A DNA stretch of 57,735 nt from Candidatus Brockarchaeota archaeon. Its GTDB lineage: Archaea; Thermoproteota; EX4484-205; JAAOZP01. The stretch covers positions 1 through 57,735 of the forward strand of contig JAFNIQ010000004.1 in NCBI GenBank assembly GCA_017601395.1, in the 5' to 3' direction. Positions 6,015-21,252 of this stretch are shown here, piece after piece. The position numbers and the translations under genes are program-made. The first letter of the stretch is position 1; each line of letters opens with the position of its first letter. Under the pieces are notes generated by a model. That model did not search any database, was not told where the DNA came from, and was given only the letters and a program-made list of their open reading frames with translations.

Positions 6015-7649
6015 TTGATGAGGAGCGACGCTGTAAAGAAGGGTGTGGACAGGGCTCCGCACAGGGCTCTGCTCCACGCCCTAGGATTGAGAAACGAGGA
6101 TTTCGACAAGCCTTTCATAGGCGTAGTTAACTCCTACACTAACGTTGTGCCGGGGCATGTTCACCTCGACGTGATCGCGGAAAACGTTTCCAAGGGTGTT
6201 AGAGACGGAGGCGGAGTTCCCTTCGTCTTCAACACGATCGCCGTCTGCGACGGTATTGCTATGAACCATGATGGGATGAGGTTCTCGCTGCCTAGCAGGG
6301 AGGTTATCGCGGACACGGTTGAGATAATGGTTTCGGCACACATGTTCGACGCCCTGGTCTTCATATCCTCGTGCGACAAGATTGTCCCCGGCCACCTGCT
6401 GGCGGCGGCAAGGCTGAACCTTCCATCCATATTCGTCACAGGCGGCCCCATGTATCCGGGCGTGTTCAAGGGGAGGAGGGTGGACCTGGTTTCAGTCTTC
6501 GAGGCCCTGGGAGAGTACCGTGAGGGGAGGATTACGCTTGAGGAGCTGAGGGAGTTTGAACGGGTCGCCTGCCCGGGTGCCGGGAGCTGCGCCGGCCTGT
6601 TCACCGCGAACACTATGGCCTGCCTTGTTGAGGCAATGGGCCTGTCGCTCCCGGGCATGGCTGCTACTCACGCTGAGGACGAGGGTAAGAAGACTCTCGC
6701 ATACGAGTCAGGGAGGAGGATAGTTGGGCTCTGGAGGGAGGGCTTAAGGTTCAAGGATATTGTTAAGCCTGAAAGCGTCGTCAACGCGATAATTGTCGAC
6801 AATGCTCTAGGAGGCTCCACCAACACTGTTCTCCATCTGAGTGCTCTAGCCAAGGAGGCTGGCTACGAGCTTTCGCTGAAGGCTTTCGACGAGCTGAGCA
6901 GGAGGATACCTACGCTGGTTCTGATGAGGCCGTCTGGCGAAGGGCTCATGTTTGACTTTTACAACGCTGGCGGAGTCCCCTCGCTTATGAGAGTCCTTAG
7001 AAAACATCTTAACCTTGATGTTCTAACCGTTACTGGTAAAAGCCTCAGGCAGCTTGTTGAAGAGTTTCCTGATCCGAGGGGCACGTTCATACGTTCCCCG
7101 GATAACCCTTACAGGAGTGAAGGGGGCATAGCGGTGCTATGGGGATCCCTGGCGCCAGAGGGTGCTGTGATTAAGCTCGCCGGGACTCCTGTTCAGCTTA
7201 GAACGTTCAGAGGCAGGGCTAGGGTTTTCAACTCTGAGGAGGAGGCTGTTGAAGCTCTTGAGAAAGAGGATTTCACGGTGAACACCGTGGTTGTCGTGCG
7301 CTACGAGGGGCTTTTAGGCGGCCCAGGGATGCGTGAAATGCTCATGCCAACTTCGCTAATAGTTGGAAGGAAGCTTGTTGAAAGGGTTGCGCTTGTCACT
7401 GACGGAAGGTTCTCCGGCGGCACGAGCGGTATTGCGGTAGGCCATGTTTCTCCGGAGGCGTACACTGGCGGACCCATAGCGCTCGTGGAGGATGGCGACG
7501 AGATACTTGTAGACGTGCCGGGCAGGAGGCTTGACCTGCTCGTCAACAGTGATGATCTTGAAGAAAGGAGGCGGAAATGGGCTCCGCCGGCTAAGAAGCT
7601 TGAAAGCCGGTTTCTAGCTAAGCTGAGGGGAAACAGGTTTTTCACCTAG
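6015..7649 (+). CDS. ilvD: dihydroxy-acid dehydratase
   Basis: 544 aa IlvD/Edd family. Motifs CDGIAMNHDGMRFSLPSRE, CDKIVPG and TDGRFSGGT. Confidence 0.93.
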   Translation: MMRSDAVKKGVDRAPHRALLHALGLRNEDFDKPFIGVVNSYTNVVPGHVHLDVIAENVSKGVRDGGGVPFVFNTIAVCDGIAMNHDGMRFSLPSREVIADTVEIMVSAHMFDALVFISSCDKIVPGHLLAAARLNLPSIFVTGGPMYPGVFKGRRVDLVSVFEALGEYREGRITLEELREFERVACPGAGSCAGLFTANTMACLVEAMGLSLPGMAATHAEDEGKKTLAYESGRRIVGLWREGLRFKDIVKPESVVNAIIVDNALGGSTNTVLHLSALAKEAGYELSLKAFDELSRRIPTLVLMRPSGEGLMFDFYNAGGVPSLMRVLRKHLNLDVLTVTGKSLRQLVEEFPDPRGTFIRSPDNPYRSEGGIAVLWGSLAPEGAVIKLAGTPVQLRTFRGRARVFNSEEEAVEALEKEDFTVNTVVVVRYEGLLGGPGMREMLMPTSLIVGRKLVERVALVTDGRFSGGTSGIAVGHVSPEAYTGGPIALVEDGDEILVDVPGRRLDLLVNSDDLEERRRKWAPPAKKLESRFLAKLRGNRFFT

Positions 7650-8677: not shown

Positions 8678-9802
8678 TCACAGCTTACGGGTGAAAACAA
8701 TATACTCGTCAGCATAGCCGATCTTAACAACCCGGTCCCTGGTTGCAACCCTCCTGTTAACCAGCCAGAGCCTCTCGGTTTCGAACCCAATCTCCTCAGC
8801 CATTTCAACGAATATTTTCTCTGTTTCAACAACGCCCGTCGGGAAAACTCCTTGAGCTATGACGAAAACACCCTTCCCGTTCTTTTTGAGAACACGGTGT
8901 AGCTCAGACAGAACCCGGCGTAGATCCTGAAAATAGGCTTCAACTATCGCAGGCATGTTCCCAATGTTTCCAGGACCCTCGGCGAGCCTAACCGCATCGC
9001 CTATGTATGAGCGCAGCATGGGTTCAGAGCCCTTGAAGAAAAGCTCGTTTTCAACGCTGTAAACCCTAGTGTACTCTATCTTGTTCAAATAAGGTGGTGA
9101 AGTGATGACTGCGTCGAACATCTCGTCCTCGAGGAACCCTAGGTTTCTCGAGTCAGCCTTGAAAGTCGCCACCTTAGGGTTAAGCATCCTTGTGGCTTCA
9201 ACATCCTTAATCATCCTCCTAATCCTGTTCCTGTAGAACTTTCTGAAAGGCGGGGCGCTCCTCTCCTTAACTATTCTAAGGAGGCCGCCGTCCTTCACCA
9301 CGTAGGATGCTTTCATGGCGGCGCTTATCAAGCCGAGTTTGAAGAAGCCTCTCGCAGCCTCGTCCTCAATGTTTTCAACGATCTCTCTGAAGAACAGCAC
9401 GTCCTCCAGAACATGCCTCGGAAAGGCTCTTCTAACAAGCCTGCTTAACCCACCTAGGCTGGGCCTCCTGAACTTTTCCGAGAAAACTTTTTCAGAAACC
9501 CTCCGGAGCTGCTCAACATCGTAGTTGGCAGTCTTAACCTTGGAGGCGAAAACAGGTAGCTCAGCCACGTCGACGCCGACACTGTTTATCCCAAGCTCCT
9601 TCCCTGTAAGCTGGGTTGTGCCGACGCCGCAGAACGGGTCCAGCACCCAGGAGTCTTCTCCAAGCCCGAGCTGCCTAGCCATAAGGACTACGAAGTCGCG
9701 GGAAAAAGCCTCCTTGTAATAGAACCAGTTGTGTATCGGAATATGCTTGTTAGGTATGAATGTGACAAGCCTCCCGAGTTCCAGCCTCTCTTCAACCATC
9801 AT
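8678..9802 (-). CDS. SAM-dependent amino-methyltransferase, probably DNA N4-cytosine/N6-adenine (SPPY motif)
   Basis: SAM motif I VLDPFCGVGTT and catalytic motif IV VITSPPY about 170 aa downstream. No recognisable restriction endonuclease lies next to it. Confidence 0.7.
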   Translation of the reverse strand: MMVEERLELGRLVTFIPNKHIPIHNWFYYKEAFSRDFVVLMARQLGLGEDSWVLDPFCGVGTTQLTGKELGINSVGVDVAELPVFASKVKTANYDVEQLRRVSEKVFSEKFRRPSLGGLSRLVRRAFPRHVLEDVLFFREIVENIEDEAARGFFKLGLISAAMKASYVVKDGGLLRIVKERSAPPFRKFYRNRIRRMIKDVEATRMLNPKVATFKADSRNLGFLEDEMFDAVITSPPYLNKIEYTRVYSVENELFFKGSEPMLRSYIGDAVRLAEGPGNIGNMPAIVEAYFQDLRRVLSELHRVLKKNGKGVFVIAQGVFPTGVVETEKIFVEMAEEIGFETERLWLVNRRVATRDRVVKIGYADEYIVFTRKL

Positions 9803-9936: not shown

Positions 9937-11463
9937 ATGGAGCATGATGTTGGTGGAGGCATATACCGGAGCAGGCTTGGGCCGGTTTCCTCAGAGGCCA
10001 CGAGATACGTGTCCAGCATCAGGGAAGACCTCTGGATACTCAGCGAGGATATTGAGTGCACGGTTGCGCATGACTTCATGCTTATGGAGCAGGGCTATAT
10101 TACTGAGGAGCAGCTTAAACGGATTCTCGAGGCTCTTAAAAGGCTTCGGGAAGAAGACTTGAGCCAGCTAGACCTTGAGAAGTATGAGGATGTTCATGAG
10201 CTGATAGAGTCTTATGTGGTTAAGCAGGCTGGGCTGGAGGTCGGAGGTCTTGTTCACACGGCGCGCTCCAGGAACGACCAGGTTGTCACGGCGGTGAGGC
10301 TTAAGACTCGAAGAGAGGTTTTAAGCATCATGGGGGAACTGCTTAAGCTTGAGGAGACTCTTCTAAGGAAGGCTAGGGAGACCGTTGACATAGTTTTCCC
10401 GTTCTACACTCATCTTCAGCAGGCTCAGGCCGCTCCCCTTTCACACTACTTCCTAGGTTATTTCGACATGTTTCTGCGCGACTTCAACCGTCTCTCAGAA
10501 TCGTTTAAAAGGGTTAACCAGAATCCGTTGGGGAGCGTTGCTATAGTCGGCTCCTCTCTTAAAATAGACAGGAGCCTAACTACGAGGCTACTAGGGTTCG
10601 ACGGGATTGTGGAGAACTCGTTCGACGCTGTCTCGTCACGGGACTTTGCGCTGGAGGTTGTTTCAAACCTTAACATTCTCATGCTTAACCTGAGCAGGAT
10701 TATGGAGGACCTGATTATCTGGCTTACCTCAGAGTATGGTTTCTTCACGCTTCCGGATGAGCTGGCGTTCCCGTCTAGCGCAATGCCTAATAAGAAGAAC
10801 CCGTGCATACTTGAGCTGACCCGTGCGAGGACGGGGAGGGTTTTCTCAAGCCTGGCCCAGCTTTCAATGGTTTGCAAGGCGGTGCCCAGCGGCTACGTTA
10901 GGGATCTTCAAGAGACTAAGCCTCCGTTGATCGAGGCGATTGAAACAACCAGGGAGGCCGTTAGGATCGTCAGGATTGTTCTCGAGAACCTCGAGGAGAA
11001 CCGTGAGAGAATAAGGTCTTTAACTGAGCCAAGCATTATCGCCCTGGACGTTGCTGAAAGAATAGTTGAGGAGGCCAGGGTTCCCTTCAGGCTTGCCCAC
11101 AGGCTGGTGGGGGAGATCGTGAAGCTCAGCGTTAAAACGGGTAAGAGGATGACTAGTCTTACCGAGGGCGATCTAAAGGAGATTTCCCTACACGTGTTGG
11201 GTAGAGATATTAGCAGTCTACTTGCAAGCATTCTGAGGGAAGCCGACACGCGTGTTCTCGTTTCGAAGCGCGTGTCACTGGGCGCGGGCTCGCCTGAGGC
11301 TGACGCGAAGATGCTTGCAGCCAGGGAGAAAACTTTACAGGAGTGTTCCTCCATGCTTAGCCTGATGGTTCAGAAGGACAGGGAGGCTAGGATGCTTCTC
11401 GAGGATTCCGTCAGCAGGCTTGTGAAGGGCTTTTTCTCCGCCGCCGCGGAAAAATGTCTTTAA
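9937..11463 (+). CDS. argH: argininosuccinate lyase
   Basis: Fumarate-lyase signature SSAMPNKKNP and HTARSRNDQV. The ORF track starts at TTG 9931; ATG 9937 is preferred here. Confidence 0.9.
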   Translation: MEHDVGGGIYRSRLGPVSSEATRYVSSIREDLWILSEDIECTVAHDFMLMEQGYITEEQLKRILEALKRLREEDLSQLDLEKYEDVHELIESYVVKQAGLEVGGLVHTARSRNDQVVTAVRLKTRREVLSIMGELLKLEETLLRKARETVDIVFPFYTHLQQAQAAPLSHYFLGYFDMFLRDFNRLSESFKRVNQNPLGSVAIVGSSLKIDRSLTTRLLGFDGIVENSFDAVSSRDFALEVVSNLNILMLNLSRIMEDLIIWLTSEYGFFTLPDELAFPSSAMPNKKNPCILELTRARTGRVFSSLAQLSMVCKAVPSGYVRDLQETKPPLIEAIETTREAVRIVRIVLENLEENRERIRSLTEPSIIALDVAERIVEEARVPFRLAHRLVGEIVKLSVKTGKRMTSLTEGDLKEISLHVLGRDISSLLASILREADTRVLVSKRVSLGAGSPEADAKMLAAREKTLQECSSMLSLMVQKDREARMLLEDSVSRLVKGFFSAAAEKCL

Positions 11464-17525: not shown

Positions 17526-17600
17526 TGCGGCGCCCGGGATTTGAACCCGGGATTCCCAGCTTGGAAGGCTGGTGTCCTAACCAGGCTAGACCAGCGCCGC
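17526..17600 (-). tRNA. tRNA-Gly (anticodon UCC)
   Basis: Reverse complement GCGGCGCTGGTCTAGCCTGGTTAGGACACCAGCCTTCCAAGCTGGGAATCCCGGGTTCAAATCCCGGGCGCCGCA. Anticodon stem CCAGC/GCTGG with loop CTTCCAA. Regular D and T arms. Confidence 0.92.
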
Positions 17601-17644
17601 GGGTACCGGAGTTAGAACAGGCTGGATGGTTAAAAGTTTTATCC
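17601..17644 (-). promoter_or_regulatory. tRNA-Gly promoter block, identical to 688..731
   Basis: The same 44 nt as upstream of tRNA-Gly(CCC). Identity stops exactly at 17644, where the cassette ORF stop codon begins. Confidence 0.6.
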
Positions 17645-18549
17645 TACTTTTTCCGTTCATCTATCATTCTTATCAGTTGAAGCTTCTCCATGTGCTCCGG
17701 CTTCCTAGAGCCTATTTCCTCTATGAATTTCAGGTGGTCCTCTGCAGGAATAGTAAAACTATGTAGATCGCGCCATCCTGGTTTCCTATGATCTGTGCGA
17801 ATCTCATGAGGATGAAATCCTAAGTCTATGAACATCTGTCTTACTTCTTCCAACCCCTCTTTGTATGTTGAGTAGATGCGAATACTATGAGCACGTTCTC
17901 CTGTCATGGAGATATTTCCGTCGCCAGAGAAGAAACCTCTTAAGTATGCCCTTTTCCCTTCTTCGTCTAAATGGGCTACAGGCGGATGAAATTCAAAGTC
18001 CTCTGGCCCCTTAATGCCCAGATTTGCTAAATCGTAAGCTATCTTCTTGCTATATATCCTTGGCTTATGGTAGGCTTTCTCTCCTTCTCCCGTGTCTTCA
18101 AAACGGATATAATCGCGGGCAGTTTCATGGTAGACCTCTCTAATTAAGTTAATGAAAAGTTCAGCGAGTTCCTTATCCTCACTATCGAAATAAACCTCAT
18201 ATACGCTTTTCTCACTATTAATGTAAATTCCACCGTCAGAGGCTATTAAACCGCATAACTCTGCCTTTTCTGGAGTAAGTATTTCCCTAACTTTTCCATC
18301 TAAAAATTCCAAACTCATTCCTTTACTCAGCTTAAAAACAATCCTGCCTCCTTCAACCTTGGCTTCAGAAAAGATTCCGATAACTTTACCTTCTTTAAGT
18401 AGTTCATATCCACCGCCTTCTGCTTCGCGAACCTCGTATCTCTCAAAGGTTCTTAAGACATGAAAGGACTCTTCTTCTCCTTTCCCTCGTACTTGCTCTC
18501 CCTCAAAGAATCTCCTTTCATACTGCTTAACCCTAGAGCCTCCGCCCAT
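17644..18549 (-). CDS. double-motif LAGLIDADG endonuclease-like protein with ~95-aa N-terminal extension
   Basis: Two LAGLIDADG motifs (LCGLIASDGGIY and YLRGFFSGDGNIS) about 110 aa apart. The C-terminal FIEEIGSRK..KL is typical of the family. The ATG directly abuts the stop of the upstream gene (TAAATG). Confidence 0.75.
   Translation of the reverse strand: MGGGSRVKQYERRFFEGEQVRGKGEEESFHVLRTFERYEVREAEGGGYELLKEGKVIGIFSEAKVEGGRIVFKLSKGMSLEFLDGKVREILTPEKAELCGLIASDGGIYINSEKSVYEVYFDSEDKELAELFINLIREVYHETARDYIRFEDTGEGEKAYHKPRIYSKKIAYDLANLGIKGPEDFEFHPPVAHLDEEGKRAYLRGFFSGDGNISMTGERAHSIRIYSTYKEGLEEVRQMFIDLGFHPHEIRTDHRKPGWRDLHSFTIPAEDHLKFIEEIGSRKPEHMEKLQLIRMIDERKK
17652..17704. repeat. left copy of the 53-bp direct repeat
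   Basis: TCCGTTCATCTATCATTCTTATCAGTTGAAGCTTCTCCATGTGCTCCGGCTTC, identical to 20558-20610. It encodes the C-terminal ..PEHMEKLQLIRMIDE of the LAGLIDADG ORF. Confidence 0.95.
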
Positions 18550-19647
18550 TTATCTTCCTCTCGTTAAAGCTCTATTCATGTCGAGCAGGTTGTGGAGAGC
18601 AAGTGTCTTGAGCCCCAGCTCCTTATCACTTAACATCAGATCGATCAATTCCTGTGGCATCATCCCTCTACATGCTTCGCAAGTACACTCCTCGAATCTG
18701 ATTTCCGGATCTTTGAAGTTGTACAATTTTCCTCCTTTAAAGTAATGTCCTTGTTTTGCTTCTAGAAACCAAGAAAGATTGCTGTAGCTACCTATCTCCC
18801 TGTACTTAAGCCTGCGGCCGATACCGTAGAGCAGCAATTCGAAATCCGTTCTAGTCCTCTTAGAAAACCACTTCAGGCTCATCAGGGCGCTGGGCAAAAG
18901 GTCACCCAGGAGATTGTCTTCGAAAAGCTCCCTCGCGGGCATCGCGAAGGAAACGTAGCCCATTTCAACCTGCTTCCTAATAGCCCAATCTATTTGAAGA
19001 TGGTTGGCGCCCTTGATTAAGCCGATTAACGGGATGTCAAGCTTGAGGAAGTCGTTTGCGAGGGAAACGAGCCTTACGGTTTGAGACCATGATAGAAAAA
19101 GTGGGTCATCCACGTAAGTATAGTTATCCGGAATCATTGTAGCATCCGGCCCAAGGTTTTTAACCAGCCTGAAATAATCCTTAAACCTAAGATTATCGAG
19201 AAGTTCGTCGGGCATCACTAATGAAAGGAAAATCCTTCCATTAAACCCTAGGAAGTCATGTAAGCCTTTTAAGGAAACTTCTTCAAGGAGGGTTTTGTCA
19301 ACCAAAAGCTGCCAAAGAGGAACAAATATTTCTGGCAATTCTACGCCATGTCTCCAGAACCATGACTTTTTATCACTAATATCGATTTGAGGGATGAATC
19401 TTTCGAAACCGATTTTGGTCATCAACTTTTTGCTTAATGAAGACATTTGCACAAAGGATCTATTCGCTGTTTTAATCGGGCAATAAGGCTGGAGTCTGCA
19501 GAAAGACTTGGGATAGGTTATTCCAGTATATTGGAAACCTCTCTGGCATTGTGCTACGAGGCACATTTTGAAAGAGCAACCGCGGCAGAGCTTATGAAAA
19601 TACGGACATTCCTCGCAATAAAAGCCGCACCATCCTTTTCTGGGCAA
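18550..19647 (-). CDS. tRNA-guanine-transglycosylase (TGT) superfamily protein, DpdA-like, with N-terminal Cys cluster
   Basis: The C-terminal CTCEAC-x25-H(NL) matches the TGT zinc site CxCxxC-x25-H exactly. It is preceded by SNLSWFLEAKQGHYF, resembling the TGT substrate-pocket strand. The N-terminus carries CGFYCEEC..C..C..C..C. Confidence 0.6.
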   Translation of the reverse strand: MPRKGWCGFYCEECPYFHKLCRGCSFKMCLVAQCQRGFQYTGITYPKSFCRLQPYCPIKTANRSFVQMSSLSKKLMTKIGFERFIPQIDISDKKSWFWRHGVELPEIFVPLWQLLVDKTLLEEVSLKGLHDFLGFNGRIFLSLVMPDELLDNLRFKDYFRLVKNLGPDATMIPDNYTYVDDPLFLSWSQTVRLVSLANDFLKLDIPLIGLIKGANHLQIDWAIRKQVEMGYVSFAMPARELFEDNLLGDLLPSALMSLKWFSKRTRTDFELLLYGIGRRLKYREIGSYSNLSWFLEAKQGHYFKGGKLYNFKDPEIRFEECTCEACRGMMPQELIDLMLSDKELGLKTLALHNLLDMNRALTRGR

Positions 19648-19770
19648 TGTGGCTTTAAAAATTGAGCTAGAATAAAAACTCTTTTCTTATGCCTCCGCTA
19701 ATAATTGAATAATTGTAATTAGATTAGTATCGGAGCATATAAATAGGTCCTAATTGAATAAAATCAGTGG

Positions 19771-20457
19771 ATGGACACAAGGAAGGGAGAGGGAAGGGAA
19801 CAGGGTGTTACTGTCTGGTATTGGGGTGAGGAATTCGAGGATGTCGGAAGGAATTGCGAGAAGTATGTTAGCAAAAGGTGGGATGAAAGCGTTAAAGAAT
19901 GTGGGGTGTGGATTCTGGCAAGAGAGAGAAGGGAGGGAATTATCTATACTGTCACTGCATTTGTAAGCAGTCCTAAAGGTATCGATAATCTGGCTCAGCA
20001 CCTATTTAACGTGACGCTCCTTCAGGGAAGTACTAAAGTGGATTTTGTTGTGGTTCAATTGACTAATTCCGTCTTCTCGGCCGGCATGCAGTATCGGGAT
20101 CCGATGGAAAAAGTGGAAAACGAATTGGAGGAACTGATGAAAAATATCGCTGAGAAGTTTGGCGAGGATCCTAGGGTTAGGGAAGTTATGAAAGGTAAAA
20201 AAGTAGTATTCATTCCAGAGATCTGCCTACTTTGCGAATTAGAATCCCATCAGGCCAGCAAGATACTTATCGAAGTTGTTCATCACTTTTTCTCGAATAT
20301 AAAAGGGTTTCTAGATTCTTTAACCAATAAGTTAATAAAGGAAGGTCTGGCAGAACGGATCTTGGGCTATAAGTTAAACGTAAGCGTTGAGAACCTTGAG
20401 ATCGAGGACGTGGAAGCTTGGGAGGATGAGGTTCACGTTTGGCTTGATCGGATATAA
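19771..20457 (+). CDS. hypothetical protein (228 aa); true start uncertain
   Basis: Long ORF divergent from the TGT-like gene across an AT-rich spacer. No motif recognised. The first ~55 codons lie in a purine-skewed G-run region where three ORFs overlap, so the start may be internal. Confidence 0.4.
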   Translation: MDTRKGEGREQGVTVWYWGEEFEDVGRNCEKYVSKRWDESVKECGVWILARERREGIIYTVTAFVSSPKGIDNLAQHLFNVTLLQGSTKVDFVVVQLTNSVFSAGMQYRDPMEKVENELEELMKNIAEKFGEDPRVREVMKGKKVVFIPEICLLCELESHQASKILIEVVHHFFSNIKGFLDSLTNKLIKEGLAERILGYKLNVSVENLEIEDVEAWEDEVHVWLDRI

Positions 20458-20557
20458 GAGCAATCTTTCAGTGTTTAAGACCTGAGATAATGAGGTAATA
20501 CCGCACTTTTAGTAGCCTACATTATTGAGAGGCCTAATAAGCGATTTGTGCTCCTTC

Positions 20558-20610
20558 TCCGTTCATCTATCATTCTTATCAGTTGAAGCTTCTCCATGTG
20601 CTCCGGCTTC
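20558..20610. repeat. right copy of the 53-bp direct repeat
   Basis: Identical to 17652-17704. Here it encodes the last 16 codons (EAGAHGEASTDKNDR) and stop of the methyltransferase, in a different frame from the left copy. Confidence 0.95.
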
Positions 20611-21252
20611 TCTGGTTCTCCTGTCCACTAGGCTGTAATTGTTCATCCCGTATTCTAGGGTAATCGCGTCTCTGAAGCCTGCCTTATTACACATCTTGCT
20701 AAAGGTTTTCCCGTCGATGAGGAAGTAGAATCTTCTATGCTGCCCCCAGTTTACCATGAAATAGTTCCCGCCGATCCTTCTAGCCCTGCGTAGAAACTTC
20801 CTATCCCTGGTCGTCTTTATCGACCATGAGGAGGCAAGCATCCATCCCTTGTCGCTCAGAACCCTTCTCATCTCTCTGAGAGCCTTCTCAGCATCATTCT
20901 CCCTCAAATGGTGTATTGCTGAAATACATATTATGCTGTCGAAAACCCTGTTCCTGAAAGGCAGGTGTGTTAACTCGTACTGCACATAGTGAACCTCTTT
21001 TCCAGAAGCGTTTTTCACGCATTGTTTAAGCATGTTTCTCGAAAAGTCTCCTGCAACCATAGTTCTGCCTCTAAGCGCTTTCAGGTTCCTACAGTTTCCG
21101 CAACCATTGTCAAGTGTTAAGCCGGCTTCCCTTGAAAAACCTCTGTCAACCAGTTTTTCAAGAAAGGGGTCTGGTCTAACCCTCGTCCTGTCAAACTCCT
21201 CGGATATGGTGTCGTAGAGCCTACGGACCTCCCCCCGGTAATCGCTGGTCAT
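20563..21252 (-). CDS. class I SAM-dependent methyltransferase, Trm9/ALKBH8-like (Methyltransf_11 type)
   Basis: LYDTISEEFDRTRVRP, LDNGCGNCRNL, FDSIICISAIHHL and MRRVLSDKGWMLASSWS follow the Trm9-type pattern. The subfamily assignment is tentative. Confidence 0.65.
   Translation of the reverse strand: MTSDYRGEVRRLYDTISEEFDRTRVRPDPFLEKLVDRGFSREAGLTLDNGCGNCRNLKALRGRTMVAGDFSRNMLKQCVKNASGKEVHYVQYELTHLPFRNRVFDSIICISAIHHLRENDAEKALREMRRVLSDKGWMLASSWSIKTTRDRKFLRRARRIGGNYFMVNWGQHRRFYFLIDGKTFSKMCNKAGFRDAITLEYGMNNYSLVDRRTREAGAHGEASTDKNDR

Follow-up and report, generated by a model that had tools for sequence, protein, structure and literature searches.

A mobile three-gene insertion bounded by direct repeats and devoid of an integrase in a Candidatus Brockarchaeota genome

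The integrative elements of Archaea are defined by their recombinases: tyrosine integrases, the Cas1 of casposons or DDE transposases. Those that enter tRNA genes by means of a tyrosine integrase, e.g., SSV1, the pTN3/TKV-type elements and bacterial islands, use sublocations at the anticodon loop or the T loop. A different mode of spreading, called intronless homing, is represented by the free-standing homing endonuclease genes Seg and Mob of T4, with SegB residing in the T4 tRNA gene cluster. The Brockarchaeota are a poorly known, uncultured phylum and, to our knowledge, almost nothing is known about mobile DNA there. We analyzed a stretch of 57,735 nt from Candidatus Brockarchaeota archaeon (contig JAFNIQ010000004.1, positions 1 to 57,735, assembly GCA_017601395.1), hereafter the window, in which positions 17,645–20,610 beside tRNA-Gly(UCC) hold an AT-rich cassette coding for a TGT-fold protein (TGTL), a LAGLIDADG endonuclease (LAG) and a third, orphan protein (UNK). 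The block is a mobile, three-gene, integrase-less insertion, bounded by direct repeats and lost by recombination between them. It probably represents one copy of a small (about 2.8–3.2 kb) selfish element family of Brockarchaeota whose insertion is triggered by the nuclease and depends on homology.

The initial annotation, made from the sequence of the window, reported a 53-mer occurring twice in the same orientation. Both copies (plus strand, 17,652–17,704 and 20,558–20,610) were confirmed; the window contains exactly these two perfect copies, shuffled sequence gave 0 matches, and with one mismatch allowed the repeat extends to 56 nt. The left copy does start 8 nt beyond the tRNA-Gly(UCC) promoter block, because the block identical to that upstream of tRNA-Gly(CCC) ends at 17,643. 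The enclosed open reading frames (ORFs) also proved to be as described: LAG (minus strand, 17,644–18,549, 301 aa, LAGLIDADG_3), the TGT-like gene (minus strand, 18,550–19,647, 365 aa), whose stop codon directly abuts the LAG start codon, and UNK (plus strand, 19,771–20,457, 228 aa), all between rnp4/tRNA and the methyltransferase/RadA genes. The G+C content of the cassette (0.426 vs. the window mean of 0.481, sd 0.03) is the lowest of all 2.96-kb stretches in the window, so the low G+C noted before is real but modest. The absence of mobility genes was borne out as well: none of the four domain libraries (Pfam, NCBIfam, PADLOC, PHROGs) recognized an integrase or transposase domain in the cassette proteins, and the repeat search found no terminal inverted repeats at the cassette ends.

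Related genomes provided both occupied and empty versions of this site. The same three genes occupied the corresponding position, with the methyltransferase on one side and Rpr2 on the other, in L001 (TGTL 96% identical) and in L002/L003 (87%), accompanied by direct repeats of 56 nt (93% identity) in L001 and 65 nt (95%) in L002/L003. A RadA-anchored scan, in which one genome per species was used, revealed two more occupied genomes, L011 and L013, bringing to five the related Brockarchaeota genomes that carry the cassette with repeats at this site. Rpr2, tRNA-Gly, the methyltransferase and RadA were contiguous and cassette-free in L012, L014, L017, L018 and L021. An empty site with a single repeat had been predicted from the window, and it was found in L014 and L018, where exactly one repeat-like copy joins the tRNA-Gly promoter to the methyltransferase; the empty sites of L012, L017 and L021 have no 53-mer. 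In L014 and L018 the LAG frame is still open across the solo copy, which we interpret as a footprint of cassette loss. In the phylogeny of the flanks the repeat-free sites are basal and the genomes with a solo repeat group with the occupied ones in a single clade, which fits one gain and two later repeat-mediated losses. The opposite scenario, considered in the initial annotation, of relatives carrying the genes in place without repeats was not encountered: relatives with the genes at the site also have the repeats, and other relatives do not have the genes. In L013 the LAG gene (6367–7254) is split over two frames in a cassette otherwise 98–99% identical to that of L002, which would point to a frameshifted pseudogene or to a misassembly.

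The cassette also has a history separate from that of its flanks. Comparison of the window with L011 showed 96–98% identity in the flanks and about 89–91% (76–94% per 200 nt) in the cassette, with abrupt boundaries; the drop spans ~17,600 to 20,597, where the identity returns to 96–97%. The left part of the drop (17,601–17,651) may be due to gene conversion of the promoter block from tRNA-Gly(CCC). The synonymous divergence (dS) between the window and L011 amounted to 0.04–0.18 for the flank genes and to 0.24–0.61 for the cassette genes, therefore the L011 cassette was not co-inherited with its flanks. The corresponding values for the comparison with L002 were 0.23–0.50 and 0.28–0.58. The ratio of nonsynonymous to synonymous divergence (dN/dS) was low for LAG (0.11–0.19), TGTL (0.09–0.13) and UNK (0.13–0.20), hence all three genes are functional and under purifying selection. 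Within a genome the left and right repeat copies match at 53/53 positions in the window and L002, at 50/53 in L001 and L013 and at ~49/53 in L011. Between the lineages the repeat differs by 8–11%, and lineage-specific substitutions are common to the left and right copies, which indicates that the copies evolve in concert or that insertion was renewed.

The two repeat copies lie within coding sequence, at the 3' ends of the LAG and methyltransferase ORFs, and are read in different frames. The left one encodes the last ~18 residues of LAG (KPEHMEKLQLIRMIDER) and the right one the last 15 codons of the methyltransferase gene (minus strand, 20,563–21,252; class I SAM-dependent, Pfam Methyltransf_11), a host gene outside the element. 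A host target is not what the repeat represents. Since the peptide encoded in the LAG frame (IGS-KPEH-E...) is conserved in LAG paralogues at unrelated loci, the repeat is the tail of the cassette's own LAG gene; the copy at the methyltransferase 3' end is a detached LAG tail, read out of frame by the methyltransferase. The insertion altered the C-terminal tail of the methyltransferase, which ends with ...VDRRTREAGAHGEASTDKNDR in the occupied genomes and with ...VDRRTRGSRPQLKE in L012 and L017; a different, shorter tail (…RTRGSRPQLKE) was seen in relatives without the 53-mer. The detached tail could come from a circle that integrated by recombination with an older relic, or from a tandem copy and a subsequent deletion. 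No single-step path, whether an inversion or a tandem copy plus deletion, could be derived that gives both the inverted UNK and the detached LAG tail.

A metagenome scan yielded 80 further loci of the family, and the counts of the triad given here cover the loci with enough sequence. At 52 of 57 loci the gene after TGTL is LAG, of which the other five show remnants, and UNK was present at 45 of 47. This co-conservation persists down to ~30% identity. The commonest order is TGTL>LAG>UNK on one strand; in the window and in L099 UNK is inverted and placed upstream. For 23 of 50 modules a tRNA gene was located no more than 350 nt from an end of the module, typically 13–78 nt past the UNK stop codon and convergent with UNK, and more such cases were visible by eye. 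The pairing of a TGT-like protein with a LAGLIDADG nuclease, for which the initial annotation knew of no precedent, is no one-off, being part of a conserved operon with a third gene at ~50 loci. We found the TGTL–LAG–UNK triad described nowhere in the searchable literature. The family is patchily distributed, multi-copy and confined to one phylum. A scan of the viral_contigs collection and tblastn of TGTL against phage genomes and viral contigs gave no matches, and a viral or phage origin was rejected. The triad apparently constitutes an undescribed element family that uses tRNA-gene sites and has no recognizable integrase.

Five independent elements of this family are bounded by direct repeats derived from tRNA genes, with a repeat spacing of 2794–3223 nt. 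The repeat matches at 53/53 positions in L072 (tRNA-Met, from the anticodon stem to the 3' end plus 8 nt), at 55/55 in L074 (Leu-like tRNA from the anticodon stem), at 134/137 in L085 (nearly all of the intron-containing tRNA-Pro and 21 nt upstream of it), at 31/32 in L086 (T arm and acceptor) and at 31/31 in L103 (tRNA-Thr, T arm to the 3' end). The two intervals that were checked, those of L072 and L085, contain three long ORFs only. These repeat-bounded sisters, together with the empty sites in L014 and L018 and the separate dS history, support the initial view of an integrated cassette without an integrase. L073 (6081–10,733) has a tandem array at a tRNA-Leu gene, where a 71-nt repeat of 96% identity consists of the UNK tail and a tRNA segment; this gene-tail repeat is a parallel to that of the window. 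A convergent pair of copies occurs in L113, and decayed copies, frameshifted or internally deleted, in L080/L091 and L130/L132.

Several other loci deserve mention. In L106 UNK, a tRNA fragment and TGTL, the genes in one orientation, form a junction that looks like a tandem or circular one. L071 has a degenerate sequence resembling a tRNA 3' end directly after the UNK stop codon (10,684–10,730) and no intact tRNA, which suggests that this tRNA-like segment may be borne by the element itself. About 12 triad contigs span 2.75–2.87 kb, approximately one element (e.g., L070, L087, L088, L004), a size to be expected when a repeat-bounded unit or a circular one is assembled. A 35-nt repeat of L124, with copies 5.1 kb apart, was considered as a pair of attachment (att) sites and rejected: the genes in the interval are of host type, and the left copy consists of an UNK-tail relic and a tRNA fragment.

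The elements share with the tRNA-targeting tyrosine-integrase elements the position next to an intact tRNA gene, the displaced tRNA fragment that forms a far-end repeat of 31–137 nt, the arrays at one site and the repeat-mediated loss. They differ in that they encode no integrase of a known family (tyrosine or serine recombinase, DDE, Cas1) and comprise only ~3 kb. The repeat in the window is also unlike an att core in being the tail of an element gene, tRNA-derived repeats being those of L072, L074, L085, L086 and L103.

LAG resembles another class of mobile genes. It matched PF14528 with 59.2 bits (cut-off of 22.5), and its profile aligned over residues 98–281 with I-DmoI chains (E 3.6e-7). 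LAG has two LAGLIDADG motifs, LIASD105G and FFSGD210G, both with a catalytic Asp at the end; D105 and D210 are invariant in the alignment, and their conservation across 52 family members is 95% or higher. LAG is thus predicted to be an I-DmoI-like homing-type endonuclease with the catalytic residues kept. The preceding N-terminal domain of ~95 aa found no relatives in Pfam, NCBIfam, PADLOC or PHROGs. Site-specific cleavage and homing by LAG would receive indirect support from the occupied and empty alleles and from the discordant history of the cassette. As in I-DmoI and the free-standing homing endonuclease genes, the core is monomeric, with two motifs and both catalytic acidic residues, the gene is not placed in an intron or intein, and the cassette has been replaced between related genomes, as homing predicts. 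Unlike such genes, LAG has the additional N-terminal domain and is always accompanied by two further genes, and simple allelic homing gives neither long direct repeats nor many different tRNA-gene sites. The element works like a free-standing homing gene and looks like a tRNA-integrating island, and it belongs to neither class as defined because it has no integrase and carries two obligatory extra genes.

TGTL could be assigned to the TGT superfamily by fold. Its AlphaFold2 model (pLDDT 83.7) found in Foldseek ArcTGT (1IQ8) as the best match (E 2e-12, TM 0.65), then bacterial TGT, and the family profile matched ArcTGT with E 1.9e-7. The TIM barrel holds a CxCxxC..H zinc site (C321/C323/C326/H352), which aligns with C279/C281/C284/H307 of ArcTGT and is invariant in the family alignment of 41 homologues, and the base-binding Asp is retained (D174, corresponding to D130 of ArcTGT). 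The reference catalytic pair consists of D95 and the nucleophile D249 in ArcTGT, and of D102 and D280 in the Z. mobilis enzyme. In TGTL, S142 and S289 align to the ArcTGT pair, as judged from the sequence profile alignment alone, and the S289 position is occupied by S or A across the family. Canonical TGT base exchange by TGTL is doubtful because both catalytic Asp residues are missing. The scores for PF01702 (23.2 vs. the threshold of 26.3) and TIGR00449 (14.7 vs. 47.6) were both below the cut-offs, no NCBIfam DpdA model matched, and the PADLOC TGT model gave only E 0.027 over 76 residues. Of the initial designation, a TGT/DpdA-like base-exchange enzyme, only the fold stood, and the catalytic Asp residues, the Pfam threshold and the lack of a significant DpdA match spoke against the rest. 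The role in DNA modification or restriction proposed for TGTL and LAG is speculation; it is unproven because the catalytic Asp residues align to Ser, Pfam is below threshold and there is no significant DpdA match.

Additional traits set TGTL apart from ArcTGT, namely the lack of the C-terminal PUA-type domains and the presence of a Cys-rich N-terminal extension. This extension of ~60 aa is conserved and poorly modelled, and Pfam, NCBIfam, PADLOC and PHROGs returned nothing usable for it; the conserved Cys residues within the N-terminal ~75 positions are C7, C11, C14, C22, C25, C34, C50 and C56. The conservation of the Cys-rich N-terminus implies the TTG start at 19,647. Public annotations of TGTL and of many homologues use an internal ATG as the start (290 aa), and the N-terminus is missing from them. 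Among 5.8 billion proteins 125 homologues of TGTL were detectable, and all those with names come from metagenome-assembled genomes of Brockarchaeota/Thermoproteota, often several per genome. No more than 270 clusters came out of an exhaustive profile search, and in the distant ones a metallophosphoesterase domain is fused to the TGT-like part; distant members of 530–617 aa (P0153, P0157) have a C-terminal calcineurin-like phosphoesterase domain. Such fusions are a second link of a TGT-like domain with a possible nuclease or phosphoesterase. None of the distant TGT-like proteins proved to be fused to LAG or UNK. A 620-aa protein encoded divergently beside the triad in L008 (5666–7528, minus strand), and also in L009 and L010, is TGT-like in its N-terminal half (~25% identity).

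The DpdA/Dpd and phage 7-deazaguanine systems likewise place a TGT-superfamily protein beside a nuclease-type gene on a mobile or defence-like locus. In the cassette, unlike in those systems, there are no dpdB–K or queCDE genes, the only neighbours of TGTL being LAG and UNK, and the DpdA model match, phage or viral matches and the catalytic Asp residues are lacking. None of the tests run identified the block as a DpdA/Dpd system.

UNK gave a confident alpha/beta model (pLDDT 92), and its gene is recognized as the homologous third gene at the other loci. Searches with its sequence in Pfam, NCBIfam, PADLOC and PHROGs provided nothing usable, and Foldseek against PDB and BFVD found no match with E < 0.05 and no recombinase fold. 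Recurrent insignificant fold matches drew attention to the HUH Rep domain; this candidate was rejected, as no HUH motif is conserved. Very few residues of UNK are conserved, Tyr32 and Tyr200 among them.

In the nuclease-triggered, homology-dependent insertion that we favour, LAG would make a double-strand break in an unoccupied target, and host homologous recombination (RadA) would copy or cross in the element via a short homology that the element bears. In most members a 3' tRNA segment would serve as this homology; in the window it would be the LAG tail, the counterpart of which would be an older relic of a LAG tail at the 3' end of the methyltransferase gene. Insertion through the carried homology would generate the direct repeat. 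The two copies would stay identical because they recombine or undergo gene conversion with each other, and this would occasionally delete the element and leave a solo repeat as in L014 and L018. TGTL and UNK would act as obligatory partners, most likely recognizing tRNA-gene or DNA targets or protecting the resident target site, the protection by TGTL or UNK being pure speculation. Such a mechanism would account for long, perfect repeats whose length and position vary, for the concerted evolution of their copies and for the build-up of arrays. Homology-driven insertion fits better than a fixed recombinase core, as the length of the repeat and its position in the tRNA vary and the repeat in the window is not tRNA-derived.

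Several facts weigh against this proposal. Detectable repeats are absent from most family copies, and the terminal overlap expected of a circular form was seen in 0 of 47 complete small contigs, many of them ~2.8 kb. The inversion of UNK and the origin of the detached LAG tail lack a step-by-step account at this locus. As the repeat exceeds the size of a LAGLIDADG site and the targets are intact in occupied alleles, protection or tight control has to be assumed. Finally, the att-like geometry at the anticodon-stem and T-arm boundaries of tRNA genes is a classic hallmark of tyrosine integrases and fits such an enzyme acting in trans equally well. As for the roles of the three proteins, it is possible, although less likely than not, that TGTL–LAG–UNK forms a self-sufficient, recombinase-free module of a new kind for integration at tRNA genes, in which TGTL, catalytically remodelled, would recognize or chemically mark the tRNA-gene DNA, LAG would cut it and UNK would complete the insertion or protect the resident site.

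The geometry of the tRNA-gene repeats also enters the first alternative, in which the cassette is non-autonomous and its repeats are attL and attR sites made by a tyrosine (SSV/pTN3-type) or other integrase with its gene elsewhere in the genome or on a helper element, the triad being cargo, e.g., a defence or restriction-modification-like module with TGTL modifying DNA and LAG cutting DNA that lacks the modification. The sister repeats indeed begin at the anticodon stem or the T arm and extend to the 3' end of the tRNA, with the new 3' part supplied by the element, just as happens when an integrase inserts DNA into a tRNA gene; arrays form at one site, no recombinase is found inside the units, and a nuclease combined with a base-modifying fold resembles the logic of restriction-modification. 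Yet the five independent units are triad-sized (the two checked hold the triad only), therefore every one of them would require its own helper suited to another tRNA (Met, Leu-like, Pro, Thr), and in L001 and L002 no integrase is encoded up to 10 kb away. The repeat of the window copy is the tail of an element gene instead of a host att core, and lengths of 31–137 nt are unusually variable for such sites. Further points against this alternative are the absence of both catalytic Asp residues from TGTL, its failure to match a DpdA model and the lack of matches in viral or phage collections. We regard this alternative as unlikely.

A slimmer chance was assigned to the second alternative, in which an unrecognized site-specific recombinase or targeting factor is present among the triad proteins, as UNK, TGTL or the LAG N-terminal domain, and the triad is a new autonomous machinery for tRNA-gene integration, with the TGT fold recognizing tRNA-gene DNA. 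It would account for the triad being the sole content of repeat-bounded units and being strictly co-conserved to ~30% identity. TGT-fold proteins bind tRNA stem-loops, and it is at the anticodon stem or the T arm that the repeats have their boundaries; UNK is modelled with confidence, has no known relative and keeps Tyr32 and Tyr200. However, no similarity to any recombinase fold turned up, very few UNK residues are conserved, the window copy does not lie inside a tRNA gene, its repeat being a gene tail, and we know of no precedent for a TIM-barrel or LAGLIDADG recombinase.

The third alternative, an immobile chromosomal operon from a paralogous family acting on tRNA (e.g., a modification pathway) with the repeat as a leftover of local duplication or rearrangement, draws on the purifying selection, the orthologous positions kept in several species and the TGT fold and tRNA adjacency that could reflect a tRNA function, but it is strongly disfavoured, and very improbable in our estimate, in view of the presence or absence of the cassette among close relatives, the solo repeats, the discordant dS of cassette and flanks, the repeat-bounded copies at five other tRNA genes, the tandem and decayed copies, the lowest G+C in the window and the patchy multi-copy distribution in one phylum.

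The family matters because its 3-kb unit combines insertion at tRNA genes, long direct repeats and turnover between species while encoding none of the recombinases by which archaeal integrative elements are defined. If LAG and host recombination suffice, a homing endonuclease gene has a simple, previously unrecognized route to become an integrative element, which would also explain how homing genes reach new sites. If TGTL acts on DNA, the TGT/DpdA superfamily gains a new chemistry or a DNA-targeting role. LAGLIDADG enzymes with specificity for tRNA genes, and possibly under partner-dependent control, would be of interest to genome engineers.

The remaining features of the locus concern its non-coding parts and the flanks. 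The divergent intergenic region between TGTL and UNK (19,648–19,770) presumably contains their promoters. The right end of the cassette is formed by a non-coding spacer (20,458–20,557), which the alignment showed to be variable and partly deleted in L002/L013. On one side the cassette is flanked by Rpr2/rnp4, MarC, LeuA and tRNA-Gly, and on the other by the methyltransferase, RadA and AspRS; the methyltransferase adjoins radA in Brockarchaeota with and without the cassette. In L020, a more distant Brockarchaeota species, methyltransferase-radA adjoins tRNA-Glu(CUC) instead of tRNA-Gly, and a TGT-like gene fragment of 49 aa (8725–8871, minus strand), located 178 nt past the 3' end of this tRNA gene, looks like a relic of another element at a neighbouring site.

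The host tRNA-Gly(UCC) gene (minus strand, 17,526–17,600; ARAGORN, and Rfam RF00005 with 65.3 bits) has its 5' end toward the cassette. Its promoter block (minus strand, 17,601–17,643) is host sequence, and the same upstream block of ~43–46 nt precedes tRNA-Gly(CCC) (614–687), 17 kb away. The similarity includes the tRNA body: positions 614–731 and 17,526–17,643 align over 119 nt with 96.6% identity. A different upstream block was found at tRNA-Gly(UCC) in L011. The near-identity of the two loci suggests a recent gene conversion between them in the lineage of the window and L001.

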